Positions 12,766 through 50,900 of a stretch of 64,000 bases of DNA are shown here, piece by piece. Each line of letters opens with the position of its first letter. Within the stretch, counting starts at the first letter, position 1. The position numbers were made by a program, and so were the translations under genes. A model generated the notes under the pieces. That model saw nothing but the letters and a program-made list of their open reading frames with translations, had not been told where the DNA came from and ran no database searches. The DNA is from an archaeon (GTDB lineage: Archaea > Iainarchaeota > Iainarchaeia > Iainarchaeales > Iainarchaeaceae), in contig JBBSVV010000003.1 of assembly GCA_038046625.1 (NCBI GenBank), forward strand, positions 4,017 through 68,016, given 5' to 3'.

Positions 12766-12801
12766 CGTATAAAAAACTTTTGCTGTTTTCGCACCGGCAC
12801 G

Positions 12802-12853: not shown

Positions 12854-12917
12854 CCATGCTCCGCACCGGCAACCACCCCCTATATGGTTTTAAAAGCCTC
12901 GAAGATTTGCTTCTTTT

Positions 12918-14009: not shown

Positions 14010-14057
14010 GGTAAGAAATATATAGTAAAAAGTAAGAAATGTGTATGGTGATGTAAG

Positions 14058-14676: not shown

Positions 14677-14699
14677 CTTGGTTTTTTTGGTGTGTTGAA

Positions 14700-14813
14700 A
14701 TGATTTGCCCGAAGTGCGGTTCAAGCGAGATGGAGAAGATGCTCACAAAGGGAATCCAGTTCCGCTGCAGGGTCTGCGGTTACAGGGGCCCGATGAGTGG
14801 TGATTTTTCGTGA
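14700..14813 (+). CDS. Small zinc-ribbon protein
   Basis: MICPKCGS...CRVCGY gives two CxxC pairs. Start placed at the internal Met of ORF 14625-14813. Confidence 0.3.
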   Translation: MICPKCGSSEMEKMLTKGIQFRCRVCGYRGPMSGDFS

Positions 14814-15004
14814 AGCGGGATTCAAAGAAGATTGTGAAGTTCTGTTCCCGCTGCGGCTCAACGGATTTGAAGCCGCTTTATTTCATGGAAGCAATCGACA
14901 ATAGAATGCAGTGCATGGGCTGCAATGTGATTGAATTCCCTGTTGAGGGCACTGAAAAGTTTCGGAAAGAATTTTTGGAGGGAAGTAAAAATGCCGGCAA
15001 ATAA
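14810..15004 (+). CDS. Small zinc-ribbon protein
   Basis: CSRCGS...CMGCN CxxC pairs; 64 aa. Confidence 0.3.
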   Translation: MKRDSKKIVKFCSRCGSTDLKPLYFMEAIDNRMQCMGCNVIEFPVEGTEKFRKEFLEGSKNAGK

Positions 15005-18041: not shown

Positions 18042-18191
18042 TCATCGTTCTGAAGTTTTCTGCCCGGACTTTTTTGCTGCATAAAATTTATTCATGAATT
18101 GAGTTTGTGTGCAACCTGTTGTCCTTCAGCTCCGCACCGGCAATGTGCCCCCCTTCAAAATCGCTTTTAAAGCCGGAATCCAAACTCCTGT

Positions 18192-19691
18192 ATGCTCCCA
18201 ATTGGAAAGACTTTCCTGTCCCGCATCACTTACCTTTCGGAAAAGAGGCAGGTTGTTGCGGAGTTCTCGAATTCCTCGGAAAAAATTTCCAAGCGTTACT
18301 CTTTCTTTCCCCGTATGCATTTCCCGATGGAGGGGATTTCACAGGGTTCGCTGAAGGAGGTTTTGTCGCTTTATGATTCCAGGCGCTTCAAGGTTGATTT
18401 TGAGGAAAACCGTGCCGTGATTTTTGCCGCCACGTTTTCCGACCTGAAAAAAATAAATAATTTGCTTTCGGATTCCCTGGGCTTTTCCTCGAACCTCATT
18501 GAGCCTGAGAGGCAGTTTCTCATTGACAGGGGCTGGAGCTACTTTGATTCTTTCACTTTTTCTGCGGATGAGCCGCAGAGGGTTTCATCGCTTGATTTTC
18601 CTGATGTGGCGCTCGGCTTTCTCTCCGATTCCCTGCCCATGACGATGCGTGACCTCATTTCATCCAACAGGCAGCTGGCCAGGGAAATCGCGGGCCGCGT
18701 TTCCATGTCGAGGGTACTGCGTATCCCCCTATTGTCTTCGGAAATGCACAGGGCCGCTCCGGAGGTTTTTCTGGAGAATGTTTTTTTCGCTTCAAAAATG
18801 CCTGTCCCCATTTCTCCGGAAAAAAAGCAAAGCATTCCGTTGAGGGTTCCGCATAAGACGGAAATAGATTTTTCCGCGGTTACGCCGCTGCTCTTGTGCA
18901 GGCCGTTCTCGAATGCAGGCCCGGAGACAGTGAACTGTGCCTGCTGCAGGCCGGCTTCGCTGAATGATTTCAATGTCCTTGCGGATACAATTGTGAAGGC
19001 GCGTTTTTTGCGCGAGGGCGCGTATTTCAATTCCGCGTCTTCTTTTTGGGCGGAGCAGTTCCACGTTTCAGGCCGGGACAAGGATGCCAGGTCAAGGAGG
19101 CGCGCCGAGTATAATTACCAGTTTTTTCCCGTGGGGCCTTTTTCGCGGAATGAAACGGCGGAAATTCTTTTGGCGGATGCCGTTGAGCTGCAGGGGCAGG
19201 GCATTGCCGAAATTCTCGGCGTAACGGGGTGGAGCTGGTTTTGTTCACAGAAGGAAAGCGCATTTTCAAGGGAAACGAATGCCCTGCGCGAAACCATTTC
19301 TTCCCTTGAATCTTCCCTGGATAAGGAGCATACTTCCGTTGTTGCATCAAATGGCCTGTTTTTTTCGCAGGCGCTCGAGGCGCGGCTGGATTATTTTTAT
19401 AGGAAGATTTTCCTCGAAACCGCTTCCTCGATTTTGTGTTCGGTTTCCGGCGTGCTTTCCGACAGGTCTTCGGGCTTTTTCTCCCCAAAAATAGCTGTTC
19501 TGCTGGAAGTTGCTTCTTTCCGCATCCTCAAAGGTTTTGAGGAAATATGCTCCTCGAACGGCATTGCAAGGGTTTCCACGGGACCTTCAAAAGCCTTTGT
19601 GGACTCTTCCTCGGTTACGCGCATTTTGAAGGATTTTTCCGAGGCATACAAGTTGAATAGGCCGTTTGTAAGGCTCAAAACCCGTTTTTAA
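18192..19691 (+). CDS. Hypothetical Ser/Phe-rich 499-aa protein sitting between herA and rad50
   Basis: Long uninterrupted ORF with no strong competitor. No Mre11 phosphoesterase motifs and no other recognisable domain. Confidence 0.45.
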   Translation: MLPIGKTFLSRITYLSEKRQVVAEFSNSSEKISKRYSFFPRMHFPMEGISQGSLKEVLSLYDSRRFKVDFEENRAVIFAATFSDLKKINNLLSDSLGFSSNLIEPERQFLIDRGWSYFDSFTFSADEPQRVSSLDFPDVALGFLSDSLPMTMRDLISSNRQLAREIAGRVSMSRVLRIPLLSSEMHRAAPEVFLENVFFASKMPVPISPEKKQSIPLRVPHKTEIDFSAVTPLLLCRPFSNAGPETVNCACCRPASLNDFNVLADTIVKARFLREGAYFNSASSFWAEQFHVSGRDKDARSRRRAEYNYQFFPVGPFSRNETAEILLADAVELQGQGIAEILGVTGWSWFCSQKESAFSRETNALRETISSLESSLDKEHTSVVASNGLFFSQALEARLDYFYRKIFLETASSILCSVSGVLSDRSSGFFSPKIAVLLEVASFRILKGFEEICSSNGIARVSTGPSKAFVDSSSVTRILKDFSEAYKLNRPFVRLKTRF

Positions 19692-19704
19692 CAACCCTTT
19701 CGCG

Positions 19705-19752
19705 CCGGAAACCGCCGGCGGTAGGGCGACTATCTTCGCTTTGCTCGATAGT
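19705..19752 (+). repeat. Structured repeat element, copy B
   Basis: CCGGAAACCGCCGGCGGTAGGGCGACTATCTTCGCTTTGCTCGATAGT, just upstream of rpoK. A TTTTTAACAA TATA-like stretch lies ~25 nt upstream. Confidence 0.7.
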
Positions 19753-19827
19753 AAGGTATTACGCTCGGAACTACCTTTTTTAATTCTTTGCGTAGGAGTA
19801 TTGGTAGATTAATAACTCGTTTTTTGA

Positions 19828-20043
19828 GTGTTTTTGATGGCTAAATTAACCCGTTTTGAAGTGACGCGCCTGATTAGTGCGAGGGCTTTGCAGCTTTCCT
19901 TGGGGGCGCCGGCACTCTCTAAATCAGAAAAAGAAGGGACCCCGATTGATATGGCGCGCGATGAGTTCGCGAAGAAGGTAATTCCTCTCGCGGTTTTGAG
20001 GGAGTTTCCCGACGGGCACGTTGAAAGGGTTGAGGTGAACTGA
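19828..20043 (+). CDS. rpoK: DNA-directed RNA polymerase subunit K (Rpb6/omega homolog)
   Basis: LTRFEVTRLISARALQLSLGAP matches the RpoK/Rpb6 core; ~70 aa. Confidence 0.75.
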   Translation: MFLMAKLTRFEVTRLISARALQLSLGAPALSKSEKEGTPIDMARDEFAKKVIPLAVLREFPDGHVERVEVN

Positions 20044-20238
20044 ATGGGCAAGGCCGTTCCGAAGAACATCAAGAGCAAGGCCAACACCTTGATGAGCACT
20101 TACCCTGACAAGGTTTCAAAGGATTTTGAGGCCAACAAGGTTTTCATTGATTCTTTCAAGATGCCTTTGAGCAAGGAGGAGCGCAATTTGGTTGCGGGCT
20201 TCATTGCGAGGACGAAAGCCAAGGCGTCAAGCGCCTGA
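20044..20238 (+). CDS. rps17e: 30S ribosomal protein S17e
   Basis: MGKAVPKNIKSKANTLMSTYPDKVSKDFEANK...ERNLVAGFIAR aligns to the S17e pattern (MG.VR...KR.A...YY..LT.DF..NK...RN.IAGY). Confidence 0.65.
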   Translation: MGKAVPKNIKSKANTLMSTYPDKVSKDFEANKVFIDSFKMPLSKEERNLVAGFIARTKAKASSA

Positions 20239-22272
20239 GATTTTTGTTGTCCCGTCATTTTCTTTTTCCCTTTCAAGCACGTAAAGCTTTCCTGATGCCG
20301 CATTCTCCATTTCCTTGTCATGCGTGATAATGAATATCTGCTCAATGAGTTCGGGCAGATGGTTGCGCATCATTTCGCTTAACTCGTGCACGGCATTCGA
20401 ATCCAAATTATGAGTGGGCTCATCCAGCATTATCCATCCAAGGTTCTGCGTGAGGACCAGAGAAACCGCTATCCGGATTGTTATGGCCGCGGCAGTCCTT
20501 TCACCTCCGGAAAGTATTCCCTCGACGCGTATCCACTCGCCGTTCCTTTGCCTCGCCATTATTTCGTAGCTGCCTTCATCCACAATTATTTTTGCGCTTG
20601 TTAAGTCCTTGTAAGGATAAACTTTTTCCCAGATTTCGTCCATTGCGTCGTTTATCGTTTCTATCATTGCGTTCCTCAGTTCGGCCTGTGTCGCTTTTAG
20701 CGCCTGCGTGAAGAGCGCGAGTTTTTCAACCGCGGTTTCGTTTGCCTTTATTGTTTTTTCGAGTTCTTTTGCCTGTTCAATGCCGCGCTTCATCATTTCC
20801 GCATTGTCGCGCATCTGCTTCAGAAGTTCTGAAGCAGCGCTTATTTCCGAGCTTGCTTTTGCCTTTTTTTCCCTGAGCAAAGCCATTTCTTCCCTTTGCC
20901 TGGCCATTTCCTTTTCGTCAAACCCTGTTTTGCGGATCATTTCCAGTGTTTGTTTGAGTTCCTTTTCGAGCGCGCTTTTCTGCTTTTCCTTTGCCTCCGC
21001 CTCTTTCGCGGCCTCGAAGATTTTTTTTGTTTCCTCGAGCTCCTGCTCGGTTTTCTTTTTGGCTTTTTTGTGCGCGTCTTTTTCCTTTTCGCGTTCCTCG
21101 AGCTCCTTTTCGTTCCTTTCGGTCTCTTCCTGAATTTCCCTTATTTTTGCGGTTATTTCGCGCTTTTGCCCCTCTAGCTCCTTTTCCAGCTTTTTCTTGT
21201 CATGCTCTTCCAGCGGCCTTTTGCACACGGGGCACTCGCTTCCCAGTTTTCCAGTTTCCTTTGCTGCCCTTGCGTTGGATTCGAGCAGGTTTTTTTGGAC
21301 CGCGAGCCTCTGCCTTGCCTTGGAAATTTTTTCCATTGTTTCTTTCGCGTTTTTTTCCGCCTTCAGGATTTTTTCCTCAATTTCCGAGTTTTCCTTCTGC
21401 TTTTCGCGCAACTCCTTCTCGGTTGCCTTTTTTTCCCCGATTTGTTTTCCAATCCTTTGGATGTCCTCTTTCAGTGCTTCCGTTCTGGATTTCGTTTTTA
21501 TTTCGAGTTCTTTAAGGAGGCGGTGTTCTCTTTCCTTTTTTTCCTGCTCCCCGAATTTTTCATCCTTTTGCTTCAGCTGCTTTTCGGTTTCCCCGAGCGC
21601 AACTTTTTTTTCCATGGCTTCTTTTTCCTTTTCCCGGATTTTTGTCTCGCGTTCCGCGAGCTCCTTTTCCGTGTCGCGCTTTTTGTGTTCCATGAGGAGG
21701 CTTTTCCTGTCTTCCGCCATTTTTTTTATCCGGTTTGCCAAAGTAACCGCGTTGGTGCGAACTTTTTCATAGCGGTCCAGGCCGAGCAGTTCATCGAATT
21801 TTTCCTTTCTTTGCGCGGGGCTCAGCTTCAGGAAGAAGTCTATTTGGTTTTGTTCGGAGTATATTGCGCGGCTGAACAAATCGTAGTTCACTTCGAGTAT
21901 TTCCTCTATTTTTTTGGTCACTTCGCTTGTTTTTGGCCCGGCAATTGTTTTGCCGTTTTCCTTTAGGCTTGCCTCGTTGATGCCGTTCCTTTTCAGCGTC
22001 CTTTCCACAAAGTATTCTTTTTTGTTGTAGTCGAACTCCATTTTCACTACGCTTTTTTCCGCCCTGAACGGCTTTGCCATTATTGTTTCGTCGAGGCTGA
22101 CCTTGCGCGCGTTAAGGCTCGGGAAGGTGCCGTAAAGTGCGAAGCATATGGCGTCTGTTACCGAGCTTTTTCCCGCGCCCATTTTTCCCACTATGACGTT
22201 CGTTCCCTTCACGAATTCCAAGTGGTTTTGGTGGTGGGTTTTCCAGTTCTCGAGGTAAATGCTTTTTATCAT
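20227..22272 (-). CDS. rad50: Rad50 ATPase (short, 681 aa) with a CxxC zinc hook
   Basis: N-terminal Walker A GKMGAGKSS. Zinc hook ECPVCKRPL in the middle of the K/E-rich coiled coil. C-terminal signature LSGGERTAAAI plus Walker B/D-loop MLDEPTHNLD. Confidence 0.8.
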   Translation of the reverse strand: MIKSIYLENWKTHHQNHLEFVKGTNVIVGKMGAGKSSVTDAICFALYGTFPSLNARKVSLDETIMAKPFRAEKSVVKMEFDYNKKEYFVERTLKRNGINEASLKENGKTIAGPKTSEVTKKIEEILEVNYDLFSRAIYSEQNQIDFFLKLSPAQRKEKFDELLGLDRYEKVRTNAVTLANRIKKMAEDRKSLLMEHKKRDTEKELAERETKIREKEKEAMEKKVALGETEKQLKQKDEKFGEQEKKEREHRLLKELEIKTKSRTEALKEDIQRIGKQIGEKKATEKELREKQKENSEIEEKILKAEKNAKETMEKISKARQRLAVQKNLLESNARAAKETGKLGSECPVCKRPLEEHDKKKLEKELEGQKREITAKIREIQEETERNEKELEEREKEKDAHKKAKKKTEQELEETKKIFEAAKEAEAKEKQKSALEKELKQTLEMIRKTGFDEKEMARQREEMALLREKKAKASSEISAASELLKQMRDNAEMMKRGIEQAKELEKTIKANETAVEKLALFTQALKATQAELRNAMIETINDAMDEIWEKVYPYKDLTSAKIIVDEGSYEIMARQRNGEWIRVEGILSGGERTAAAITIRIAVSLVLTQNLGWIMLDEPTHNLDSNAVHELSEMMRNHLPELIEQIFIITHDKEMENAASGKLYVLEREKENDGTTKISGA

Positions 22273-22368: not shown

Positions 22369-22428
22369 CTGCTATCTAGCACCTGGCAGAGCAAAGCTCT
22401 GCCGGGCCTCGTACCCTACGGGTAGAAG
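22369..22428 (-). repeat. Structured repeat element, copy G (hairpin-module variant)
   Basis: The reverse complement aligns to 34270-34345. GTACCCGTAGGGTAC hairpin is shared. The second hairpin GGCAGAGC-tttg-CTCTGCC covaries with CGCAGAATC-ttct-GATTCTGC(A). Confidence 0.6.
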
Positions 22429-22471
22429 GAACCACATTAAAATGCCGAAAACTTTCGTGGTTTGCTATAAA

Positions 22472-22918: not shown

Positions 22919-22995
22919 TGAAAAAACCTTATTTTTAGCGGCATTATTTGTCTAGTATTCTCTATTGAGTTACCTTTAAAAAGGTTGATTTCAGC

Positions 22996-23021
22996 CTTTT
23001 TCTTTCTTGCGAGAAAGAAAA
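22996..23021. promoter_or_regulatory. TTTTTCTTTCT-tgcg-AGAAAGAAAAA palindrome upstream of the tRNA-like 5' fragment
   Basis: Same inverted-repeat family as the motifs flanking the tRNAs. Confidence 0.45.
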
Positions 23022-23103
23022 ACGCTGGCGAAAAAGAAAGAGACGGGGCATATTTTTGGCCATAGAACCTTTAATTAAGTGTTTTTCACCCATTTTTTTG
23101 CAC

Positions 23104-24286: not shown

Positions 24287-24461
24287 CTGCACTTTCACGC
24301 AGAATCCTTGATTCTGCTGAAACCTGCACTAAAAAGAAAGAGTGCCGGAAAAAGAAAAGACCCCTGTTTCTGGCTCGGCAAGCCGTGCTTGGCCGGTTTC
24401 AATGTGGCCAGGGCTCGCTTTCTTTTAGGCAAGGAATTAATACTCGCAAGTAGTTGTATTT

Positions 24462-33101: not shown

Positions 33102-34142
33102 TCACCACTTCATTTTGTATCTCAAAAGCGCCGCTATTCCGCCGATTCCAGCAATTTTTTTCCCCGCCTCGTTTTTTTCGTTCACGAAGTGTATTTTCCC
33201 GTTTAACCGTTCCACAAGTTCCAGAATTGTTTCCGTTTTTCCGCGGTTTGCGGTCATAAAGTTTTCCTCGACAATTATTTCCTGTATTGCTCCCGCTTCC
33301 GCGGCTTTCTTCACTTCCTCGGGGCCTATTGCCGCGGCGCCGTTTTTTCCGAGTTCTGAAAAAAGTTTTTCAACGACTATTTCCTCCTGCGCCGATTGGA
33401 AGTTCCGGACAAGCGCATCTATTTTGCCGCTTTTGATGAGCTCGTTGAGGCCGGTTATCCCCACAGAATTTGTTGATTCAAAGCTGGCCGGCAGTTTTAC
33501 TGATTTGTCCTTGAGGAATTTTTCAAAATTCTGCCTTTCAAATCCCGGGCCCGCAATTACCACTGCATTTGCGCCGAGTTCCGTGATTTTTTTGAGGAGT
33601 TCCTCAAAGTACGGTTTTCCTTTTTCGTTTTGCTGGAACCTCTTGCCTTCCTTGTTTGCGATGATCCTTGCCCTGGTTTCAAAGCCCGAATCCTTCAGGG
33701 AAGCCAGATCAGCGGCTTCGTCATCCATAACAACAATGAGAAGTTTTTTCCTTCCCGCGGTCTCTTTCGCTTTCTCGAGCCTTTCAATGTGGTAGTTCTT
33801 GATGCTTTTTTTCTTTATTTTGAGTGCGGTTCCGGGTTCTGCCTCAATTGTGTGGTGTGATTTCAGTTCCACGAGCTCTTCAGGCTTTGCCGAAACAACT
33901 ATGCCCTGTATCCTGAGCTGGTTCGAGGGTTCGTGGAACTCAGCTTTTTCAACTTCTAATTCCACAAACACTTTTTGCTTGAACGCCTTTTCCCCTTCAG
34001 TTTTCGGCTTGATTTTCCTTTCGGAGCTGCCGCTGACCAGGTCGCCCTTCTCTATGAGCCTCTCCAAATGCCAGAGGTCGTCAAAAGAGTCAGGCACGAC
34101 CTCGAAATAATTGTTTTTCCTGTCCACTTTTATTATTTTCAT
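33102..34142 (-). CDS. pelA: Pelota/Dom34 mRNA surveillance factor
   Basis: 346 aa; N-terminal Sm-like domain plus eRF1-like domains 2/3. MKIIKVDRKNNYFEVVPDSFDDLWHL is the typical Pelota start. Confidence 0.75.
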   Translation of the reverse strand: MKIIKVDRKNNYFEVVPDSFDDLWHLERLIEKGDLVSGSSERKIKPKTEGEKAFKQKVFVELEVEKAEFHEPSNQLRIQGIVVSAKPEELVELKSHHTIEAEPGTALKIKKKSIKNYHIERLEKAKETAGRKKLLIVVMDDEAADLASLKDSGFETRARIIANKEGKRFQQNEKGKPYFEELLKKITELGANAVVIAGPGFERQNFEKFLKDKSVKLPASFESTNSVGITGLNELIKSGKIDALVRNFQSAQEEIVVEKLFSELGKNGAAAIGPEEVKKAAEAGAIQEIIVEENFMTANRGKTETILELVERLNGKIHFVNEKNEAGKKIAGIGGIAALLRYKMKW

Positions 34143-34240
34143 ATTAACAGCAATTGCCTATAAAGTGTTAAAAACACTTGGAAATCACTTCATTACATGA
34201 CAAGAGTCGCTGTTCTCGAGAAGGACCGTTGCATCACAAC

Positions 34241-34402
34241 AGTTTCGTCTGTTGGGTGCGAGTACTATCTCCTTGTACCCGTAGGGTACGAGGCCTCGCA
34301 GAATCTTCTGATTCTGCAAGGTCGCTTGGGCTCGATAGTAAGTTTGGTTATGGGTGTGAGGCACGATACTTCGCAGTTGACCTGCTTTGCGTTTGGTGAT
34401 GT
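34241..34402 (+). repeat. Structured repeat element, copy E (long form), inserted just upstream of abce1 and preceded by a diverged duplicate of the first 44 nt of abce1
   Basis: Starts ACAACAGTTTCGTCTGTTGGGTGCGA. Contains GTACCCGTAGGGTAC, CGCAGAATCttctGATTCTGC and GGGCTCGATAGT. 34197-34240 repeats 34406-34449 with 5 synonymous differences. Confidence 0.7.
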
Positions 34403-34405
34403 GAA

Positions 34406-36184
34406 ATGACTCGAGTAGCTGTTCTGGAAAAGGACCGTTGCATCAATGGCACGGGCTGTGATTACATATGCGGCCACGTGTGTCCAGTGAACCGCGCGGG
34501 AAAGGACTGCATTGTTCTAGATGAGGTTACAAACAAGCCCGTCATCAGCGAGGAGTTATGCATCGGCTGCAACATATGCGTAATTAAATGCCCCGTGGAT
34601 TGCATTTACATCGAGAACCTTGTCCAGGAACTGAACGAGAATCCTGTGCATCGCTTCGGCGAGAACGCGTTCAGGTTCTACAGGCTCCCCACAATAAGGA
34701 ACGGAGAAGTAGTTGGGTTGATTGGCAGGAACGGAATAGGAAAAAGCACTATCCTGAAAATAATTTCTGGCCAGCTGGTTCCAAATTTGGGGGATTACAA
34801 TTCAAAAGGCTCTTACGATTCGGTGATAAATTTTTTCAAGGGGAAGGAATTGCAGCGGCTTTTTTCCTCGCTGAAAGACAAGCGGATAAAGGTTTCTTAC
34901 AAGCCGCAGAACATAACTGATTTGCCCAAGGCGGCGAAAGGCACTGTGCGCGAACTCCTGAAAAAAACCGATGAGCGCAAAAAACTTTCCGAGGTTTCGG
35001 AGTTGCTGGGCCTCGGAAAAATTTTGGACAGGGAACTCTCGCACTTGAGCGGAGGAGAATTGCAAAGGGTTGCGATTGCCGCGGCCTCATTGAAGGATGC
35101 TGATTTGTATGCTTTTGATGAGCCAACTTCTTATTTGGATGTGAGGGAGCGCCTCAATGCCTCCAAGGTTTTGCGCGGTCTTGCGGAATCCGGAAAGGCG
35201 GTTGTTTTGATTGAGCATGACCTCGCGGTTCTTGATTACTTGAGCGATTATGTGCACCTTCTTTACGGAAAAAAATCGGTTTACGGAATAGTTTCAAAGC
35301 CGAAGAGCGTTCGCAATGGCATTAACGAGTTTTTGGAGGGCTTTGTGAAGGATGAGAATGTTCGGTTCAGGAGCACAGAGCTGAAATTTGAGGTCAAGCC
35401 TTCCACGGATTTCAGGAAAAAGAAAGTTATTGCTAGCTACCCGGAACTCAAAAAGTCCTTCAAGGGATTTTCCCTCGAGGCTGAGGCGGGGGATTTGCGC
35501 GAGGCCGAGGTTCTGGGAATAATGGGCCCCAATGCAATAGGCAAAACGACTTTCGTGAAGATGCTTGCCTCCGTTGAGAAGCCAGATTCAGGGAAGATTG
35601 ATTTTTCCATGCATGTTTCCTACAAGCCACAGTACCTTGTGCCTGAAAAGGGCGTTACTGTTGGTGATTTTATTGATTCTCAGGACCTTGATCTCTCGGT
35701 TTTCAAGAATGAGGTTGACCGAAGGTTGGCAATTACAGAGCTGGAAAATCACTTGCTTGAGGAATTGAGTGGCGGCGAGCTCCAGAAGATTGCTGTCGGA
35801 GTGGCGCTTTCGCGCACGAATTGCGAGCTCGTTCTTTTGGATGAACCAACCGCTTTTGTTGATGTTGAAGATAGGCTGAACATGGCTGATGCAATCCGTT
35901 CCGTAACAGATGCGAAAAAGAAGATTTGCATGGTTGTTGACCACGACATTTTGTTCCAGGATTATGTTTCTGACAGGTTGATGGTTTTTTCTGGCGAGCC
36001 CTCCGTGAAGGGCTTTGCGGGCGCCGCAATGTCAATGCATGACGGGATGAATTCTTTCCTCAAATCGGTTGGAATTTCTTTCAGGCGCGACCCGGAAAGT
36101 GGAAGGCCGCGTGCAAACAAGTTGCATTCGCAGCTCGACCAGGCGCAGAAGAAGAAAGGTGAGTATTACTATCTCGTGGATTGA
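34406..36184 (+). CDS. abce1: ABCE1 / RNase L inhibitor (Fe-S cluster + twin ABC ATPase)
   Basis: N-terminal Cys-rich ferredoxin-like domain (CINGTGCDYICGHVCPV ... CIGCNICVIKCP). Two Walker A/B + LSGGE ABC cassettes. Confidence 0.85.
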   Translation: MTRVAVLEKDRCINGTGCDYICGHVCPVNRAGKDCIVLDEVTNKPVISEELCIGCNICVIKCPVDCIYIENLVQELNENPVHRFGENAFRFYRLPTIRNGEVVGLIGRNGIGKSTILKIISGQLVPNLGDYNSKGSYDSVINFFKGKELQRLFSSLKDKRIKVSYKPQNITDLPKAAKGTVRELLKKTDERKKLSEVSELLGLGKILDRELSHLSGGELQRVAIAAASLKDADLYAFDEPTSYLDVRERLNASKVLRGLAESGKAVVLIEHDLAVLDYLSDYVHLLYGKKSVYGIVSKPKSVRNGINEFLEGFVKDENVRFRSTELKFEVKPSTDFRKKKVIASYPELKKSFKGFSLEAEAGDLREAEVLGIMGPNAIGKTTFVKMLASVEKPDSGKIDFSMHVSYKPQYLVPEKGVTVGDFIDSQDLDLSVFKNEVDRRLAITELENHLLEELSGGELQKIAVGVALSRTNCELVLLDEPTAFVDVEDRLNMADAIRSVTDAKKKICMVVDHDILFQDYVSDRLMVFSGEPSVKGFAGAAMSMHDGMNSFLKSVGISFRRDPESGRPRANKLHSQLDQAQKKKGEYYYLVD

Positions 36185-43224: not shown

Positions 43225-43800
43225 TCACCCACTCTGGCCGAATGTGACTTTTGTTTCGGATCCGATTTTGTCCACTTTTGCAATGAATATGGCGCCCTGC
43301 ACTCCGGTGTTTACCTCACTCGGCGAGCATGAGAATGAGGCTCCTGCATCGAGCTCTTTCGTGCATTTTTTGTCTGCATCAGGATCCAAATCCAAGGCCA
43401 AGTCATCATCCGCATTGTTTTTGCATTCTTCGGGGACGCGGGCTGAAATCTGTTCAAGCCCCGCATCAAGCGGAACAACAAGGTATGAGAAACCTATCCC
43501 TGCAAAGTTCGTGGACGGTGGGGCCGCAGGAACGCAGTAAATTTTTGATTGCGGCGGAATAACAATTTCTATGGTCTGCCTTGTTCCGGCGCCGGATATT
43601 GAAACGTATTGTGCCGCGTTCACGAGCTTGTCGGCAGAGGCGCGGAGCTTCGCGAGGTTTGCGGTGTCGTTCATTGCATTGCTCGCAATGTCCGCGTTCG
43701 GCTGTATTATTGCGACTATGTAAAGCAGTGAAACCACGAGTATGAGCAGAAATTCTATGCTCGCCTGCCCCCGCCGGAAACCGCCGGCGGTATGGTGCCC
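43225..43800 (-). CDS. Pilin-like protein whose N-terminal signal peptide (RRGQASIEFLLILVV) is encoded by repeat element C; start codon unresolved
   Basis: Class III signal motif RRGQAS-IEFLLIL. No in-frame ATG within 50 codons upstream. The coding frame runs through the CCGCCGGCGG palindrome. Confidence 0.4.
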   Translation of the reverse strand, partial: GHHTAGGFRRGQASIEFLLILVVSLLYIVAIIQPNADIASNAMNDTANLAKLRASADKLVNAAQYVSISGAGTRQTIEIVIPPQSKIYCVPAAPPSTNFAGIGFSYLVVPLDAGLEQISARVPEECKNNADDDLALDLDPDADKKCTKELDAGASFSCSPSEVNTGVQGAIFIAKVDKIGSETKVTFGQSG

Positions 43801-43915
43801 TATCTTCGGTTTTGGCCTCGATAGGTCTTGCTTCGCAATTTTCCCGTTCAAAATATCAAGTTCCACAACAGTTTCGGCTGTTGGGTGCGATAGCCCATGC
43901 TGTCGCATGGACTTG
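43774..43915 (+). repeat. Structured repeat element, copy C (module 1 + hairpin module CAACAGTTTCGGCTGTTGGGTGCGATAGCCCATGC), with a diverged duplicate of the prepilin-peptidase gene 3' end
   Basis: CCGGAAACCGCCGGCGGTATGGTGCCCTATCTTCGGTTTTGGCCTCGATAGG, then a ~45-bp direct repeat (43827-43870 versus 43916-43960). Confidence 0.65.
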
Positions 43916-43940
43916 GCGTTGCTTCGCAACGCAGGCTTAT

Positions 43941-45065
43941 TCAAATAATCAAGTTCCATATCAAGTCTCCCGTAAACTGAAGCGCAATGTACGCAATGAG
44001 GATTGCGGGAACAAATGCCGCGGTTTTTCTCACGACCAGTTGCTTCGGCGCATTTCCCTGCAAAGCTTTTTTCCTGAGTTCTTTCGCCGCCTCTTCCGTA
44101 AGCCCTCCCGCCTCGCGCGGGCTCGAAAACACGTTCCCAGGGACTTTGTATGCCTTGAGGGCGTTTTCAATTTTATTATCCATTAACTGCTTAATAACAC
44201 TTTTTATGCTCGGCGCCTCGACAGGAATTATTTTCCCTCCTTTTTCCACAAGGTAATAATCCGGAATCATTCCTTCCGTGATTTTTGCGGTTTCAATTTT
44301 TTCCCTGAACGCAAATTCGCGGCTCTCTGCATAAAGTTTCCACAGGAAATAAACGCACACCAGCGGAACCGCTATCGCTATCGAGTTGAACAAAAGGTTT
44401 TGCGCCGAAACCAGCAGGCCGGCAACGGCTGAAATTATTATTGCCGCGTTCCTCGCCTTTTTTGGGATGAAAGCTGCGGCAACCATTATGGGGAGCACCC
44501 AGAACAATTCAATCCCGGATTTTGAAAGAATGGTTTCAACGCCAGCGGCAAAAATTCCGGCGCCGAGAATGCCAGTTGCTTTTGATGCTACGGCTTTCAT
44601 CGTCCTCGCGAAAACTTCTTTGTGCTTCAATGAGGCCGTAAGCGCCATCAGGATTCCGAGCGGCAGCATGGAAAATATTGATGCCACTATGAGCGTTACC
44701 GCAAAAATCGGCAGCGGGGTTGTTGAAAGCAATTGGCCTTGCAGCCCGAGCGCGTCCCTGAGGATTCCGTAATTTACGGGGTTGATTATTGCGAGCGCTG
44801 TAACAAGCTTGACATCGCCTCCCGCCCACGCGCCCATCCTGTAGAGCGCGTATGAAACCACAAAGGCAATTGTGGCAGCGGCGAATGCAAATAATATTGG
44901 TTCGATTGCCTGTGCATTCAGCGATTCAAAAATTTTTAGTATTATGCCGGTTCCGGCTATTGTGTAAGTGAGCCTGTTCGGAACAATCCGTTTCCTGAGG
45001 TCGGTATAGGTTGCAATGAGCAGTGTTATGAGTGTTAAAAAAAAGTATAGGGAGGAAAACACCAT
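43941..45065 (-). CDS. Prepilin/pre-archaellin peptidase (A24 family, PibD/FlaK-like) with a C-terminal extension
   Basis: Polytopic membrane protein. N-terminal DLRKRIVPN aspartyl-peptidase motif and a second Asp in ...AWAGGDVKL. Confidence 0.65.
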   Translation of the reverse strand: MVFSSLYFFLTLITLLIATYTDLRKRIVPNRLTYTIAGTGIILKIFESLNAQAIEPILFAFAAATIAFVVSYALYRMGAWAGGDVKLVTALAIINPVNYGILRDALGLQGQLLSTTPLPIFAVTLIVASIFSMLPLGILMALTASLKHKEVFARTMKAVASKATGILGAGIFAAGVETILSKSGIELFWVLPIMVAAAFIPKKARNAAIIISAVAGLLVSAQNLLFNSIAIAVPLVCVYFLWKLYAESREFAFREKIETAKITEGMIPDYYLVEKGGKIIPVEAPSIKSVIKQLMDNKIENALKAYKVPGNVFSSPREAGGLTEEAAKELRKKALQGNAPKQLVVRKTAAFVPAILIAYIALQFTGDLIWNLII

Positions 45066-46688: not shown

Positions 46689-46702
46689 ATCCCCTCCTCC
46701 CG

Positions 46703-46788
46703 CACAATAGTTTCGTCCGAGAATGCGCCTCGGAAGGGTGCCAAGATTGTTGGGTACGACTGCTATCTTCGCCGTGGGGCTCGATAGT
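46703..46788 (+). repeat. Structured repeat element, copy D, at the junction between the two tandem flaJ-like genes
   Basis: ...GGGTACGACTGCTATCTTCGCCGTGGGGCTCGATAGTAA. Flanked by imperfect direct repeats TTCATCCCCTCC (46687-46698) / TTCATCCCACC (46814-46824) that contain the stop/start junction GGGATGAAA. Confidence 0.6.
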
Positions 46789-46813
46789 AAAAACATTTGC
46801 GTGTGTCATTTTT

Positions 46814-47968
46814 TCATCCCACCTTCGGTTGGGTTATTTTTAAGTAGAACACGAGGAACCCAAGCACAAGCGGCATTGCAACCAAATAAATTGCCGCTAT
46901 TGCTATCGGGGACAATGCAACGCTTCCCACGGAAATCGGTGCATTGGTTATGGAGCCTATTATTCCGATGAAAACCGGCACCACTATTGCGGCGAAAATG
47001 TATATTACTCCGAAGAAGTTCATTTTTTCCGAGAACTCGCGGACCGCAATGCGCATGTCGAAGCTCACGTCCTCGGCAATTGTGTTCATTATGTCCGAGA
47101 GGTTTCCCCCGGTTTTCATTGCGCGTATTATGTGCAGGAGCGCGTTGCGCAGCGCCTTTGACTGTGTCCTTAAAGCGAAGTGCCTTAGCGCGTCTTTCGT
47201 GTCCGTTCCTTCCTCGACCTCGTTTATTGTGCGCGCGAATTCTTCGCTCAGCACGCCGTAATCTGAGGTCGCTATTGTCTGCAGTGTTTTGTAGAGGCCT
47301 ATTCCGGACTTTAATTCGGTCGCCATGTGCCTCAATGCGAAGGGCAGCTCCACGCTCATGGCGTCGCCCCTTCTTTGTGCGTTGCTTTTCGGTACGAGCA
47401 TCAGCGCTACAAGCGCGAACATTCCCACTGCGCCGGAAATGAGGATTGAGTAAAGCAGGTTCACCTTGTACACGAAGCTCAGTGCGGCAATGATTGCAAA
47501 TGAAAATATTCCCGCAAGCGTTGCGGCCGCAAGGGAAAGCGCGAGCCATTGCTGGAGCGAGTACTTCATGTTTGCGGAGTAAAGGTAATACCGCACATCA
47601 TTCGCGAGCGGCAATTTTTTTATGAGGCGTGAAACCGGGTCAAGCGGCAGCCTGAGCATCAGGTAAAGTTTTCCAAGGCTCTTTATCGCAGGGCTCTGGA
47701 ATTCCTGCAAATCTTCAACGGTCTGGACGTTTATTTTTGCCTGTTCGCCCTCGGCAATTATTCCCCTCAGCTCCCCAAGCTTTCCCCCGACTTCCTCGAA
47801 TTCAATGCCCTGTTCACGGTACTTTTTTTTCATGCGGTCGACTATTTTTTCTACCTTGTCCATGTCCACGGTTTCCTGCGCGTCCTTTCCCGCAGTCGTC
47901 TGCTTTTTTTCTTCCTTTTTTTCCTCGATTTTTTTTCTCAGGTCGCTCAAAGTGCTCATGGTGTTCAC
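46814..47968 (-). CDS. FlaJ/TadC/PilC-like membrane platform protein, copy 2
   Basis: Same architecture as 45732-46688; 384 aa. Confidence 0.6.
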   Translation of the reverse strand: MNTMSTLSDLRKKIEEKKEEKKQTTAGKDAQETVDMDKVEKIVDRMKKKYREQGIEFEEVGGKLGELRGIIAEGEQAKINVQTVEDLQEFQSPAIKSLGKLYLMLRLPLDPVSRLIKKLPLANDVRYYLYSANMKYSLQQWLALSLAAATLAGIFSFAIIAALSFVYKVNLLYSILISGAVGMFALVALMLVPKSNAQRRGDAMSVELPFALRHMATELKSGIGLYKTLQTIATSDYGVLSEEFARTINEVEEGTDTKDALRHFALRTQSKALRNALLHIIRAMKTGGNLSDIMNTIAEDVSFDMRIAVREFSEKMNFFGVIYIFAAIVVPVFIGIIGSITNAPISVGSVALSPIAIAAIYLVAMPLVLGFLVFYLKITQPKVG

Positions 47969-50900
47969 TTTTTTTTCATTGAGTACTGCTTTACCGCTTC
48001 GGAGATTTCTTTCATGCTTCTCCTGTTTTCCTTCACGAGCTTTTCGAGGTATGCCGCCCTGTCCTTGACCTCGTCATCAAAGTCCTTTTTGGACATTCCC
48101 GCGAGTTCCTGGAGTTTTTGGGCGTAATTTATCTGGGCTTTTGTCCTTTTTAGGGAGTCTGTTACCGGGTCGCGCAGGTATACGGCTTCGGTTTTCGGCT
48201 TGCCTTCAAGGGCGCCGGTCACTTGGGCAATTTCGGTTATTCTCCTTATTGTCCCCATTTTCCTGTCGTGCAGCCTGTGCTGTACAACTATTATGTCGAG
48301 CCCGGAAAGCATTACTTGCGGCACGTTCATCGGCGGGTTTGTCACCCTCACGATTGTTTCCTGTGCCGAGTTTGCGTGCACTGTTCCGAGTGAATTTCCC
48401 ACGATTATTCCCTGTGCCACGAAATTATGGGGGTTCCTGCCGGTTTGCCTTTCTTCGCTTACCGTCAGGTCATATACAAATCCGTTGTATGGGTATGAGT
48501 GTATGGCAATTACCTTATCCCAGAAAATGTCGGATTCCGCGAGCAGCTTAAGCTTTGAGGATTCAATTCCCGCAGATTCAAATGCCTTGGCGAGTGCCCC
48601 GACTGCACGCCTGCTCGGCGTCCTTTCCCTTCTTTTGTAAAAACTTATTGCTCCTTGTGTTAATCCTGCCATTCTCGCAATTTCAGAATTGCTGTACCCC
48701 TTTTCTTTTTTTGCCGTTTTGAGCAGTTTTATTATGGTGCCGTTGCATTCTATGGTGTCGGTATTCGTGTTGCTTTCTTTTCCCCTGCCGAGCAGTTCCT
48801 CTATTTTCCTTATTTTTTCGGGGAATTTTACCGGGTAGGTTTTGTAGAATTTTTCCACTTGGTCTATTCCATAAATATAGAGCCTGTACCATCTGCTGTT
48901 GTGTGCGCGTGACTCGTATTTTCTGGAGGTTATCCCTTCCGTCAATAATGCATAGCGGAAAAAATCTATGTAGTGCTCGTTTGCGCATGAAATGACGATT
49001 GCATTGTTGTTTGCATCAACATGCCCTTCTGCGTCAAAAAAGCCCGCGACAAACCCGCGCAGGGAGTTCGTGTAGTGTGAATTGGACATTTTTGCTTTCT
49101 GCCTGCTTCCCGCGGGGATGTCAAGCATTTCCATAATCTTTGCGGTTTTCTTGAACCCGCTTATGTGCGCTTCATAGCATTGCTTTTGCGGGCGCGGGTT
49201 CACTATTTTCACGTGTGTCCCATCGAGGTTTTCTTTCATGTAATTTATGAATTTCGGGATTATGGTTTCCTCTTCTGTGTAGAGGTTTATTGAGCCTTCA
49301 TTGCACAGGTATTGCTTGCCGTTTTTTTTCCTTTGCCTTTTGTAATAGGTTATGTTTCCGTCACCGTGCAGCAGGCCACTCCAGTATTCGCTCTCGGTTT
49401 CTTTTGCGTTTTCTTCCCTGAGCAGCTTTCTCGGGGTTGCAATGTTTTGCCCTTCCTTGAGAGTGTCCGCCCTTGCCTGTTGAATGTTGTCCGCAAGAGT
49501 ATAGAATGGGTGGTTTCCCGTGCAGGTTAGTTCGCTGCCGGAAGCAAGCTTTATGTGGTAAACGTTGCCTGTGAAAGGCCTGCGCCTTGCCTGCACGATT
49601 TTTTGCCTGTTCACTTTCCCTTTGCCGTCCACAGAGTTGATGTGCTCATCGCCCACAGTGCACACTTCCCACTCTCCTTCTTTCCGGCTGCCGTTTTTCT
49701 GCAGTTGCTCTTCCGTGAATTGGCCGATTTCGCGTATTCCCGAAGTCAGCGCTATTTTTGCTTCGCCCGTAAGGCAACCGTCATGCCCCGTGTTGAATGC
49801 CGTGAACAATGAGAACGCCTCATCATGCCTGATTTCGCCGACAATTATCCTGTCAGGGCGCATTCTCAGGGAATTTTTCGTGAGTATGTCAAGCGTTACC
49901 TCTCCGGTTCCTTCAAGCCCAGGCGGCCTTGCTTCCATCCTTATCCAGTGCTTCAAGGGAAGGTTCAGTTCGGCCGTGTCCTCAATGGAAATTATCCTTT
50001 CTGTTTCCGGTATGAATGTTGCGAGCACGTTCAGCGTTGTGGTTTTTCCGGAGCCGGTTCCGCCTGAAATCAGTATGTTTGCGGGTTTCGTGCCCAAGCC
50101 ATCGGTGCATGCCCACAGGAATGCGGCGGTTTCCGCTTCAATGGTTTTGTTTTTTATGAGGTCTATTATTGTGTAAGGGTCTTCGCGGAACTTTCTTATT
50201 GTCAATGTGGAGCCCTGCACCGAAGCGGGGGGAATTGTTGCGTTGACCCTGCTTCCATCAGGGAGTCTCGCATCAAGGAGCGGGCTGCTGATGTCCACCC
50301 TTCTTCCTATTTGCCTTGCAATCCTGTTCACGAGATCCTGTATTTCATTGTCGTTGTAGAACTCGATGTTCGTTATCATCATTCCGTATTTCCTGTGGAA
50401 AATGTAAACCGGCCTGTTCGGCGCGATGACCATTATTTCCTCGAGCTTGTCATCGTGAATCAGGTCGTCTATTATTCCGTACCCTATCATTTCCCGTATT
50501 ACCGTGTTCGCATAAAAATCAAACCGCGTTTTTGGTATGTTGAGTTCCGGGGAGTCGCGGAGAATCTCAAGCACTTTCTGGTAGTAAACGTTCTTTCTCT
50601 GCTCCGGGTCGCGGATCTTGTAAGGCGTAATGCTGATTACCCTTGTCGCGGCCTCCTTGATGGTGTTGATTATTGTTTTTTCCGCCCCCACAGGCCTTGG
50701 CACGGGTATCCAGTAGTAAAGCAGGGGCTGTCCCGGGAGCTCGTAAATTTTGGCGTTTCCATAGGAATCAATGAGCTTTTTTTCGGATGTTTCCAGTTCC
50801 CTTTCCGCGGTGGATTTTTGTTCCTCGGGAACGCTTTCCGGGTTTTGCGGCGCGTTGATATTTTCCTGTGGCGGGAGCGTGCTCTTTATTTCCGCTATTT

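Follow-up and report, generated by a model that had tools for sequence, protein, structure and literature searches.

A gene-less structured repeat element inserted with a direct duplication at the start of abce1 in an archaeal genome

The stretch of DNA analysed here (64,000 nt from a DPANN archaeon, referred to below as the window) carries abce1, the gene of the ribosome recycling ATPase, next to its divergent neighbour pelota. This gene order was kept in L005, L007, L009 and L039 (compared loci are given as L numbers), and the next-best ABCE1 relative was only 79% identical. The interval between the two genes contains a second copy of the first 40 nt of abce1, followed by a structured element:

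33102 to 34142, minus strand: pelota, open reading frame (Pfam Pelota_N and eRF1_3 on the identical locus L001)
34159 to 34196, plus strand: ancestral abce1 promoter region, aligned by eye with orthologs
34197 to 34236, plus strand: DR1, the upstream repeat copy, representing the old first 40 nt of abce1 at the native promoter, which at present forms the leader's 5' end and opens the upstream open reading frame
34197 to 34409, plus strand: upstream open reading frame of 70 codons, opened by DR1, with a TGA stop that overlaps the abce1 ATG (ATGA)
34237 to 34262, plus strand: element hairpin H1 (CAACAG-TTTCGT-CTGTTG, 34237-34254) and linker GGTGCGAG (34255-34262), supported by covariation
34263 to 34340, plus strand: element hairpin H2 (TACTATC...GGGCTCGATAGTA), the family signature, with a covarying closing pair
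34341 to 34405, plus strand: element tail, variable within the family, holding a GGTGAT motif
34406 to 34445, plus strand: DR2, the working first 40 nt of abce1, with an N-terminus that agrees with about 40 orthologs beginning M[TAVP]R[VIL]AVLE
34406 to 36184, plus strand: abce1 (RLI), 592 aa, a 100% match to a protein named RLI (Pfam Fer4 and ABC_tran)

The two direct repeats begin exactly at the A of an ATG and end in ...ATCA, with unrelated flanks on either side, and the pair was recovered by two independent means, a repeat search (family D8, 88%) and blastn alignment of the region against the window (35/40 identical, E = 3.7e-07). The repeat period is 209 nt, and the intervening element (34237-34405) measures 169 nt. 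Translations of the two copies are identical (MTRVAVLEKDRCI), as all five differences (repeat positions 6, 7, 12, 21 and 24) are synonymous, four at third codon positions and one (AGA/CGA) at a first position; the probability of five synonymous changes out of five would be 9.4e-4 if differences were random. An earlier note on this DNA had described an upstream copy that re-encodes the ABCE1 N-terminus with synonymous differences only, and this observation is borne out. Its measurements required correction: the repeat spans 40 nt rather than about 44 (34197-34240), the element was given as 162 bp, and the five differences, all of them synonymous indeed, had been placed exclusively at third codon positions.

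The same arrangement was present across 7.8 kb, at full identity, in an independent NCBI assembly, and in Logan three contigs derived from other runs contained the 3' part of the element together with abce1. The same abce1 architecture was seen in L039, a JGI contig that is unrelated and represents a second lineage. Agreement between the independent assembly, the Logan contigs and L039 excludes an assembly artefact as the source of the duplication.

Empty sites, which the earlier note had suggested seeking among orthologs, were found at the orthologous pelota/abce1 loci L005, L007, L008 and L009, where both the element and the duplicate are missing; no upstream abce1 duplicate was seen in these four loci or in L040 and L041. 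The pelota-to-abce1 spacer is 52-53 nt long in L005 and L009, and the distance from pelota to DR1 in the window is 54 nt; a promoter motif is also common to this locus and L008. Since the gene start in these two empty-site orthologs lies at the place of DR1, the inserted sequence amounts to 209 nt (the element plus one repeat), and deletion of these 209 nt would restore the ancestral gene. The arrangement at abce1 is an insertion with direct duplication, and it occupies the same site in two lineages (the window and L039).

Comparison of the two gene starts revealed a mosaic pattern in both lineages. In L039 the repeats differ at positions 3, 6, 9, 12, 15 and 38, and for the window and L039 together 9 of 11 differences fall at third codon positions (p = 1.4e-3). 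Silent sites are saturated over the 5' 15-24 nt, and the copies agree fully over the 3' 16-25 nt: 2 of 11 codons were identical in the 5' part versus 12 of 13 in the 3' part (p = 5e-4, with a mosaic boundary picked after the data were seen). At identical residues, distant orthologs use the same codon in 40-50% of cases, so the 5' parts of the repeats are as diverged as separate species. Lineage-specific residues are common to both copies (T2/V4 in the window, P2/I4 in L039). In L039 the upstream copy has ATA in place of ATG together with an I13T substitution. At position 6, both genomes have A in the upstream copy and T in the downstream one. A saturated 5' part beside an identical 3' part in two lineages cannot be explained by simple decay of a dead copy, and the silent-only differences suggest that both copies evolved as working coding sequence, their 5' parts probably with separate histories.

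One way to account for these data is plain target-site duplication followed by evolution in place, two initially identical copies diverging as the functional one drifted silently and the relic was homogenised in part by gene conversion, with luck contributing to the pattern. The perfectly identical flanking repeats of some other family copies fit this account, as do the shared insertion site and the greater identity of repeats within each genome (34/39 and 33/39) than of upstream copies across genomes (26/39); the paralog-specific position 6 also suggests one old duplication. Opposed to it, a neutral relic would be expected to show about 42% silent-looking differences by our own arithmetic, versus the 9/11 observed. 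Shared lineage-specific first-position changes are moreover interleaved with unshared third-position differences, which conversion tracts cannot yield, and the contrast of saturated and identical parts is itself difficult to reconcile with this history. We regard it as unlikely.

The element between the repeats is gene-less and belongs to a repeat family with a common core, in which H1, pseudoknotted with the following linker, precedes the conserved hairpin CUAUCUUCGCC...GGCUCGAUAG (CUAUC...GAUAG). This pseudoknot is of the H-type and arises from pairing between the H1 loop and the linker. Covariation in alignment A2 placed pairing at 98.9% for H1 and 84% for the pseudoknot helix; none of 500 shuffles reached the observed pairing, and slid controls were 34-45% paired. 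The pair that closes H2 also shows covariation among family members (CG 12, AU 7, GC 3, UA 1). At abce1 the H2 loop is enlarged by two nested hairpins (34272-34293 and 34294-34321), the first of which recurs at 22381-22430 on the minus strand. L039 carries a nested hairpin of 52 nt that is lacking in the case of protein P0002, and this marks a demonstrably recent insertion. Tails of other family copies range from 11 to 67 nt with no conserved end. Screening the whole window with Rfam 15 at gathering score returned tRNAs only, and matches at E up to 10 on 34150-34470 and 12760-12900 were at chance level. HDV-like and pistol-like ribozyme topologies were rejected, as reasoning on helix order indicated a misfit and the Rfam models gave no match. 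No description of such a structured family was found in literature searches, and the elements constitute a previously undescribed structured repeat family with a conserved RNA-like fold.

At least seven family copies, all gene-less and with elements of 65-170 nt, are present in the 64-kb window, where a gapped pattern for H2 gave five matches against zero expected. In addition to the copy at abce1, these are:

12786 to 12872, plus strand: family copy (H1 CGCCGG..CCGGCG and H2) between divergent genes, upstream of nurA; repeat family D5
19691 to 19755, plus strand: family copy beginning at the stop codon of the open reading frame 18192-19691
43762 to 43959, plus strand: two family copies (43762-43846, and a second from 43866), the second flanked by a 19-nt direct repeat
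46702 to 46791, plus strand: family copy between two minus-strand genes of a pilus operon
60515 to 60642, minus strand: family copy that includes a nested hairpin module and lies at the 5' end of an ATP-cone gene

The 19-nt repeat (43847-43865 and 43940-43958) corresponds to the start (ATG/GTG GAA CTT GAT ...) of a minus-strand pilin-like gene, and its reading frame continues across the elements at 43762-43959, inside the cleavable leader. A class III signal-peptide-like motif, FRRGQASIEFLL, was recognised there by eye, and the neighbouring gene is that of a prepilin peptidase. The copy at 46702-46791 is orthologous to one in Ca. Iainarchaeum andersonii (L020, flank 96% identical). Scanning of species genomes identified 28 loci in other genomes, all archaeal; assigned lineages were several DPANN phyla or Altiarchaeota, and many loci were labelled just as uncultured or unclassified archaeon. 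Family copies are often located in or beside tRNA genes, many are antisense to the host gene, and the core motif was absent from IMG/VR viral contigs.

Long flanking repeats are a trait of the family: direct repeats of at least 17 nt flanked 6 of 33 elements versus 8 of 1500 random control positions (Fisher p = 1.7e-7). Their lengths were 14, 17, 19, 20, 20, 21, 27, 28 and 40 nt, most copies being without a detectable repeat, and the sequences at abce1, the pilin-like gene, the tRNAs and the L24-like and S7-like genes are mutually unrelated. These repeats re-create tRNA nt 1-20 in L033, tRNA 3' ends in L015 and L026, a TTG start in L013 and the last codons of a ribosomal protein S7-like open reading frame in L034 (assigned by eye from the translation, not by Pfam); in L014 the result is an in-frame 31-aa insert in a ribosomal protein L24-like open reading frame (likewise assigned by eye, not by Pfam). 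Ten repeat-flanked copies displayed no consensus at the 5' or 3' element ends and no terminal inverted repeats. Two candidate target guides were rejected. Pairing of the linker with the 3' end of the upstream repeat, which reaches 7 bp at abce1, is not a family trait (observed 3.11 versus 3.26 in shuffled permutations), and complementarity between tail and repeat reached significance in L033 alone (z = -4.1), abce1 and L039 showing none.

These features bear on the kind of element involved. Like MITEs and REP/BIME-type elements, the family is short, gene-less, multi-copy, hairpin-forming, modular or nested, and intergenic or located at gene ends. It differs in having ragged ends, neither terminal inverted repeats nor a fixed short target duplication, a core fold (pseudoknot and invariant hairpin) conserved across phyla, and copies that serve as tRNA introns. 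Long and variable target duplications (8-514 bp) have a precedent in IS1549 and IS1634 (PMC2266710); these are autonomous elements of 1.5-2 kb with a DDE transposase and inverted repeats, whereas the present family has neither a gene nor such ends.

There is also a resemblance to archaeal integrative elements of the SSV/pNOB8 type, which favour tRNA genes and supply a gene end, leaving a partial target copy on one side and the restored gene on the other. By this analogy, a miniature element might have carried an attP with its own abce1 start and been integrated in trans by a tyrosine or SSV-type integrase. The repeat does begin exactly at ATG and has an identical 16-25 nt core beside a diverged arm (homologous recombination gives the same picture), and the family's preference for tRNA genes with partial tRNA duplicates left behind recalls archaeal integrative elements, for instance the C. 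subterraneum case (PMC3293823). Those elements, however, are kilobases long, encode a recombinase and use one att core, while here the elements measure 65-170 nt, their boundaries are not conserved, and the flanking repeats (14-40 nt) differ in sequence and length at each locus with no common att core. Pfam searches of about 30 window open reading frames detected no integrase, transposase or reverse transcriptase, and the absence of the motif from IMG/VR contigs also speaks against this reading. We therefore consider site-specific integration very unlikely. Of the interpretation put forward in the earlier note, the insertion, the real silent-only divergence, the siting of family copies at gene and tRNA termini beside long direct repeats and the distinction from a cut-and-paste MITE all stand; att-site duplication by a recombinase is not supported. 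Its proposal that the element brought its own copy of the gene end survives in part, as the mosaic fits a foreign start with a crossover in the repeat, which would have come through host recombination and not by way of a dedicated integrase.

Duplication templated by RNA would offer a different origin for the repeat boundary. Here a nick at the insertion point would prime copying of the target transcript up to its 5' end, where the polymerase would switch onto element RNA, giving the product promoter-[1..x]-element-[1..x]-rest with a repeat that begins at the RNA 5' end. Consistent with this, the repeat begins at base 1 of a probably leaderless mRNA in the window and L039 and at tRNA +1 in L033, the element is a strand-specific folded RNA-like structure with U-G pairs, and its ragged ends are those expected of copied RNA. 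In L015, L026, L034 and L014, however, the element is antisense to the duplicated gene. The L013 repeat starts at a TTG start codon about 35 nt from a TATA-like box and the L034 repeat ends at a stop codon, so that the boundary follows the limit of the open reading frame and not the transcript end; in L015 and L026 it is the tRNA 3' end, again in antisense orientation. No reverse transcriptase was detected among the window open reading frames searched, and this route appears quite improbable.

The reading we tentatively favour, at somewhat less than an even chance, is that the element inserted with duplication of its target and that the resulting allele then passed between related species through homologous recombination. 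The 169-nt element became inserted 40 nt inside abce1, together with a direct duplication that covers the target between the start codon's first base and the point of insertion. A complete abce1 is thereby rebuilt downstream, and the old gene start is left stranded at its native, probably leaderless promoter. Target duplications would vary from none detected up to 40 nt, and in essential genes only those reaching a gene terminus would survive; from about ten cases, we infer that such survivorship is why the boundary of a long repeat so frequently coincides with a start codon, a stop codon or the end of a tRNA. The insertion allele may subsequently have moved between related species with one crossover inside the repeat, which would join a saturated 5' part to an identical 3' part.

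Several observations weigh against the transfer step. Neither a donor lineage nor an intermediate relative was found (the next-best ABCE1 being as distant as stated above), so that recombinational transfer is proposed from the pattern alone. When abce1 and pelota of the window were compared with those of L039 in sliding windows, no tract of raised identity appeared, which argues against recent exchange between these two lineages. The paralog-specific position 6 is accounted for by an old shared duplication no less well than by repeated transfer, and the upstream copy in the window keeps its ATG and all 13 codons and opens the 70-codon reading frame. A copy retained in this way could be functional in place. 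The silent-only mosaic in two lineages is, in either case, a rare natural marker of inter-species recombination or of hidden use of the upstream copy.

How abce1 may be expressed behind the insertion is suggested by its upstream region, where an A/T-rich TATA-like box (TATAAAG / GTTAAAAA, 34159-34174) is accompanied by a shared TTGGAAATC motif. Between the end of this box and the first ATG lie 22 nt, and in L008 and L009 TTTTAAAT is likewise followed by 22 nt and then ATG (24 nt in L039). This spacing implies a leaderless transcript with a putative start at about 34197. The element sequence, read directly, contains neither a TATA-like box nor four or more T in a row, and transcription of abce1 would probably start at the old promoter and run across the element, giving the mRNA a structured leader of 209 nt. 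Translation would then begin at the downstream ATG, presumably through the Shine-Dalgarno-like GGTGAT (34395-34400; -11 to -6), which lies in the element tail 5 nt upstream of that ATG; in this genome, ribosomes terminating the upstream open reading frame at the overlapping ATGA may assist. Adaptive silent recoding of the new internal start was considered and rejected, as in both genomes the codons actually present downstream raised the predicted opening energy of -14..+15 and did not lower it. The abce1 case would thus illustrate how an essential leaderless gene can absorb an insertion, its start being duplicated, the old start turned into leader and a ribosome-binding site supplied by the element.

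The upstream reading frame remains open in just 7.3% of shuffled elements, and a homologue search with its 70-aa product matched only itself, with none outside this genome. With its ATGA on the abce1 start it resembles translationally coupled upstream open reading frames, from which it differs in opening with a copy of the gene's own N-terminus and in being absent from the second lineage.

These data could also mean that the upstream copy is functional in place and that both copies are translated. In one version, translation of the DR1-initiated frame would deliver ribosomes to the abce1 ATG; in the other, the element and DR2 would be removed by splicing at a relaxed bulge-helix-bulge (BHB) motif on the UGCA palindrome of both repeats, with DR1 as the first exon. 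The restriction to silent differences is in keeping with either, first and second codon positions being conserved while the third is saturated, and so are the residues shared by both copies within each lineage and the 70 open codons with their ATGA overlap. Coupling, on the other hand, would constrain the frame and not the amino-acid sequence, and in L039, with its ATA and I13T, the upstream reading frame is not conserved. Shared residue changes interleaved with unshared silent differences would not easily arise through gene conversion.

DPANN archaea possess broad-specificity splicing endonucleases. The titles of two papers (PMC12397907, PMC5829648) are consistent with this. A partial BHB motif is present in the window with putative splice points at 34235 and 34444, in which 4/4 positions of the central helix and 4/5 of the outer helix are paired, and the same element core occurs within a canonical BHB tRNA intron in L030. 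The putative inner helix, by comparison, is paired at 0/4 positions in the window and the outer helix at only 2/5 in L039, and a second apparent motif at 34221 is merely the internal hairpin of the repeat. BHB processing across the element, which the earlier note had raised, was judged improbable, the predicted motif being incomplete in the window and without conservation in L039. Function of the upstream copy in place, by whichever version, is in our judgement improbable.

Beyond abce1, one conserved core occurs in three settings: as the body of tRNA introns, beside tRNA genes, and in insertions with long target duplications in essential genes, the latter comprising abce1, the ribosomal L24-like and S7-like open reading frames (both by eye) and, additionally, the leader of the pilin-like gene. 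The family bears on the gain and movement of archaeal tRNA and mRNA introns. As a candidate for a mobile intron-like element in DPANN archaea, it is concrete and can be searched for. That the H1-pseudoknot/H2 element is a mobile RNA-level element, either a transposing BHB intron or a self-processing RNA, seems to us a rather slim prospect. If true, one way in which Archaea gain introns would be insertion accompanied by target duplication, and a spliced leaderless abce1 mRNA would use the upstream copy and an unspliced one the downstream copy, keeping both in coding shape.

Similarity to archaeal BHB introns (tRNA; Cbf5 mRNA, PMC2738675) lies in the common core of the L030 and L028 tRNA introns and in the restoration of abce1 on excision of 209 nt; differences are the incomplete and non-conserved motif at abce1, the location of the element 5' of a complete gene copy and the antisense orientation of many copies. 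In L030 a tRNA-Gly intron at position 37/38 has the element core as its body and shows a canonical BHB (UUGC/GCAA; worked by hand). The ARAGORN tRNA scan does not call the intron-containing tRNAs of L028 and L030. In L028 the core occupies the same tRNA position with a less regular BHB motif, and the match to the Rfam tRNA model extends over 1998-2149 and accommodates the element as an insertion, its removal thus being predicted from the sequence to restore a functional RNA.

A repeat search (family D8) paired 34197-34236 (ATGACAAGAGTCGCTGTTCTCGAGAAGGACCGTTGCATCA) with 34406-34445 (ATGACTCGAGTAGCTGTTCTGGAAAAGGACCGTTGCATCA), the first 40 nt of the working abce1, at 35 of 40 positions, and a blastn comparison of this region with the window recovered the same repeat (E = 3.7e-07). 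The repeat begins precisely at the A of the ATG and ends past ...ATCA, the flanking bases are dissimilar, and both copies translate as MTRVAVLEKDRCI. All five differences (repeat positions 6, 7, 12, 21 and 24) are synonymous, an outcome with P = 9.4e-4 given that a single-base change in these codons would be silent in 24.8% of the possible cases. The duplicate abce1 start of the earlier note, with silent differences only, is therefore present, with three corrections: it spans 40 rather than 44 nt, one of the five differences placed there at third codon positions (AGA/CGA) is a first-position change, and the insert, put at 162 bp, measures 169 nt (repeat period 209 nt). An assembly artefact was ruled out by an NCBI assembly matching the locus with full identity across 7.8 kb and by three Logan contigs from other runs in which the 3' part of the element is joined to abce1. 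These independent contigs (L002, L003 and L004, at their position 1) stop at one base within a near-palindromic nested hairpin (34294-34321), the palindrome having probably interrupted assembly there.

The ORF at 34406 (592 aa) encodes ABCE1/RLI, with its nearest named relatives in Ca. Diapherotrites/Iainarchaeota; two Ca. Iainarchaeum andersonii loci match other parts of the window at 88-96% identity. Divergent to abce1 lies pelota (33102-34142, minus strand), a synteny kept in orthologs, and the spacer between the two genes is 52-53 nt in the empty-site loci L005 and L009; in the window, pelota is 54 nt from the upstream copy and 263 nt from the downstream one. The motif TTGGAAATC ahead of the upstream copy is common to the empty-site locus L008, and an A/T-rich box ends 22 nt 5' of the upstream ATG, as in L008 and L009, a spacing which implies a leaderless abce1 transcript starting at about 34197. 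The upstream duplicate was absent from every other abce1 locus examined (L005, L007, L008, L009, L040 and L041), which upholds the insertion reading of the earlier note, as no second copy was already in place at the empty sites. It follows from the ortholog spacing and the absence of the duplicate elsewhere that the ancestral arrangement was promoter-ATG and that 209 nt (element plus one repeat) have been gained since. A structured family member has inserted and abce1 positions 1-40 have been duplicated, the downstream copy forming the working gene start and the upstream copy standing at the old promoter.

Layout of the abce1 insert
34237-34254: hairpin H1, CAACAG/CTGTTG
34255-34262: linker, GGTGCGAG
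34263-34340: hairpin H2, TACTATC...GGGCTCGATAGTA, enlarged by two nested hairpins
34341-34405: tail, with GGTGAT five bases 5' of the abce1 ATG

Neither a TATA-like box nor a four-T run is present in the tail. A 70-codon ORF begins with the upstream copy and ends in a TGA overlapping the abce1 ATG; its frame is open in just 7.3% of shuffled elements, and a search found no homologues of the ORF. Expression of abce1 would now proceed from a 209-nt structured leader via the GGTGAT site, possibly assisted in the window genome by termination-reinitiation at ATGA. Two exclusive folds are predicted for the linker GGTGCGA within this leader (34229-34262), one with the H1 loop (pseudoknot) and one with UUGCAUC, the last 7 nt of the upstream repeat, the latter being the minimum-free-energy prediction.

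Further copies of this H1-linker-H2-tail family occur in the window.

Other family members in the window
about 12786-12872: family copy
about 19691-19755: family copy
22381-22430: family fragment
about 43762-43939: two family copies
about 46702-46791: family copy
about 60515-60642, minus strand: family copy

A scan with the pattern CTATCTTCGCC-N(2-12)-GGCTCGATAG, using one genome per species, returned 28 loci, compared with approximately three matches expected by chance according to our arithmetic. All 28 are archaeal (Iainarchaeum, Pacearchaeota, Aenigmatarchaeota, Altiarchaeota, Undinarchaeota and Nanobdellati), many of them in MAGs named merely as uncultured or unclassified archaeon. The pattern had zero matches in IMG/VR viral contigs, no Rfam model matched, and no description of such a family was found in the literature; it appears to be undescribed. 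Covariation analysis of 15 copies found H1 98.9% paired and the helix between H1 loop and linker (an H-type pseudoknot) 84% paired, with both-sided changes in 8 of 11 pairs; in 500 shuffles the observed pairing was never reached, and slid controls were 34-45% paired. The closing pair of H2 covaries too. Because several pairs are U-G, the predicted fold is strand-specific. At one Ca. Iainarchaeum andersonii locus (L018, 3630-3770) the H2 unit is found in tandem with a period of 51 nt.

In about a dozen of the 28 loci the element lies within or beside a tRNA gene. At L030 (minus strand, about 5100-5280) a tRNA-Gly(GCC) gene has an intron at position 37/38 with the element as its body, and the intron boundaries make a canonical bulge-helix-bulge (BHB) motif, derived by hand (central helix UUGC/GCAA, two 3-nt bulges). 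At L028 (1998-2149) the Rfam tRNA model covers 152 nt with the element as insert, its core being the body of a tRNA-Gly intron at the same position, with a less regular BHB motif. At L033 (894-1030) the tail would form a strong duplex with the duplicated 5' part of the tRNA (-27 kcal/mol, z = -4.1); such tail-repeat complementarity was seen in no other copy, and general pairing of target with linker found no support as a family trait.

Direct repeats of at least 17 nt flank 6 of 33 H2 elements, compared with 8 of 1500 random positions of the same geometry (Fisher p = 1.7e-7).

Flanking direct repeats at family copies (L-numbers, loci of other genomes)
L033: 20 nt, duplicates tRNA positions 1-20
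L015: 20 nt, tRNA 3' end, antisense to the element, running about 9 nt past the tRNA end
L026: 21 nt, tRNA 3' end, antisense to the element
L034, minus strand: 17 nt, the five final codons of an S7-like ribosomal protein ORF (identity by eye from translation), with the element tail completing the stop codon
L013: 28 nt, starts one base 5' of a TTG start codon
L014, 2291-2410: 27 nt inside an L24-like ribosomal protein ORF (identity likewise by eye), repeat plus element adding 93 nt (31 residues) in frame to its C-terminal tail
43847-43865 and 43940-43958, window: 19 nt, start of a minus-strand pilin-like gene

The upstream repeat abuts H1 in all cases (0-10 nt), a tail of 11-67 nt precedes the downstream repeat, and the ends share no consensus among repeat-flanked copies. 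A cut-and-paste MITE is excluded by these ends and the variable tail, in agreement with the earlier note. The integrase acting on an att site which that note favoured fares differently: a single att site is excluded because every locus duplicates its own target, and no recombinase was found in a Pfam search of about 30 window ORFs. The sole precedent found for long, variable target duplications (8-514 bp) is IS1549/IS1634 (PMC2266710), and the family joins traits of mosaic repeat elements, long-duplication insertion sequences and BHB introns. Most copies lack a detectable repeat; long repeats occur where an insertion lacking them would have destroyed a gene; the majority end at, or about a base from, the gene end (exceptions L015 and L014), which suggests survivorship among duplications that vary in length. 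At abce1 the duplication would have arisen at insertion, and only its reach as far as the start codon would have let the insertion survive. A repeat templated by RNA, from transcript 5' end to nick, would suit abce1 and L033 and is a misfit to the antisense cases and those bounded by ORF limits. In the pilin-like gene, two elements (43762-43959) lie inside the 5' end and are read in frame within a cleavable leader (...FRRGQASIEFLL); of the two start-codon copies one is ATG and the other GTG, and the neighbouring gene on the upstream side encodes a prepilin peptidase.

The same arrangement at abce1 was found in a second lineage (L039, a JGI contig), whose ABCE1 is 78.5% identical to that of the window; together with the family-wide pattern, it strengthens the original observation, which is confirmed. 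The order is pelota, TATA-like box, ATACCAAGGATTGCGGTATTGGAAAAGGACAGGTGCACCA, element, ATGCCTAGAATAGCTGTATTGGAAAAGGACAGGTGCATCA, with a period of 172 nt; the element begins with CAACAG, has the linker GGGTGCG and a hairpin nested inside H1, and lacks H2. That nested hairpin is a 52-nt module (CAAAGAGTTGGCAAATGAATATATAC...GCTGCCAACTCTTTG; L039 1380-1460) and, because it is missing from the 97% identical sequence of protein P0002, is a presence/absence polymorphism of recent origin; window 60560-60600 has a related module, its stem compensated. The L039 copies differ at positions 3, 6, 9, 12, 15 and 38, five of them third positions, one of which turns ATG into ATA in the upstream copy, while the sixth is an I-to-T change. 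An upstream copy functional in place, through splicing or coupling via the upstream ORF, would best fit a silent-only pattern, but L039 has this ATA start, the I13T change and no upstream ORF, and the BHB motif sought across the abce1 element, a processing route raised in the earlier note, is incomplete and non-conserved.

With both genomes pooled, 9 of 11 differences fall at third positions (p = 1.4e-3), and identical codons number 2 of 11 in the 5' part of the repeat versus 12 of 13 in the 3' part (p = 5e-4, boundary picked post hoc). Since distant orthologs have 40-50% of codons in common at identical residues, the 5' parts of the repeats read as diverged to the degree seen between species, and no differences occur in the 3' 16-25 nt. 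Lineage residues are common to both copies of each genome (T2/V4 in the window, P2/I4 in L039), and at position 6 the upstream copies of the two genomes have A and the downstream copies T. A dead copy decaying in place could not have produced such a mosaic. Plain duplication followed by drift and gene conversion has the codon-position statistics against it, and conversion tracts cannot interleave shared first-position with unshared third-position changes.

On the favoured reading, the mosaic would record homologous recombination between related species differing at silent sites. The donor allele would already have been repeat-element-repeat, and one crossover in the 3' part of the repeat would leave the recipient's 5' part upstream and the donor's downstream. 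A donor with saturated silent sites could, by our estimate, remain 90-95% identical in the constrained ABCE1, which would explain the shared P2/I4. The interpretation in the earlier note is right in part; its idea that the element arrived with a gene end of its own would be kept on this account, via host recombination and without a dedicated recombinase. No recently exchanged tract was found between the window and L039 lineages, and a test for adaptive opening of the abce1 start region gave no support.

Inteins are carried by HerA (14931-18041), within a NurA-HerA-(unknown)-Rad50-like cluster (12918-22272), and by a type II/IV secretion ATPase (47965-51204), the latter intein with a LAGLIDADG domain. 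A free-standing LAGLIDADG-domain ORF (153-1049, minus strand) overlaps a tRNA gene (95-167) by about 15 nt at its 3' end. A-rich hairpins (AAAGAAAA...) make up a second repeat family, which adjoins tRNA genes at 1845-1895, 3961-4011, 22995-23045 and 24312-24362, and a similar A-rich hairpin lies 5' of H2 at two Altiarchaeota loci (L025 and L038).
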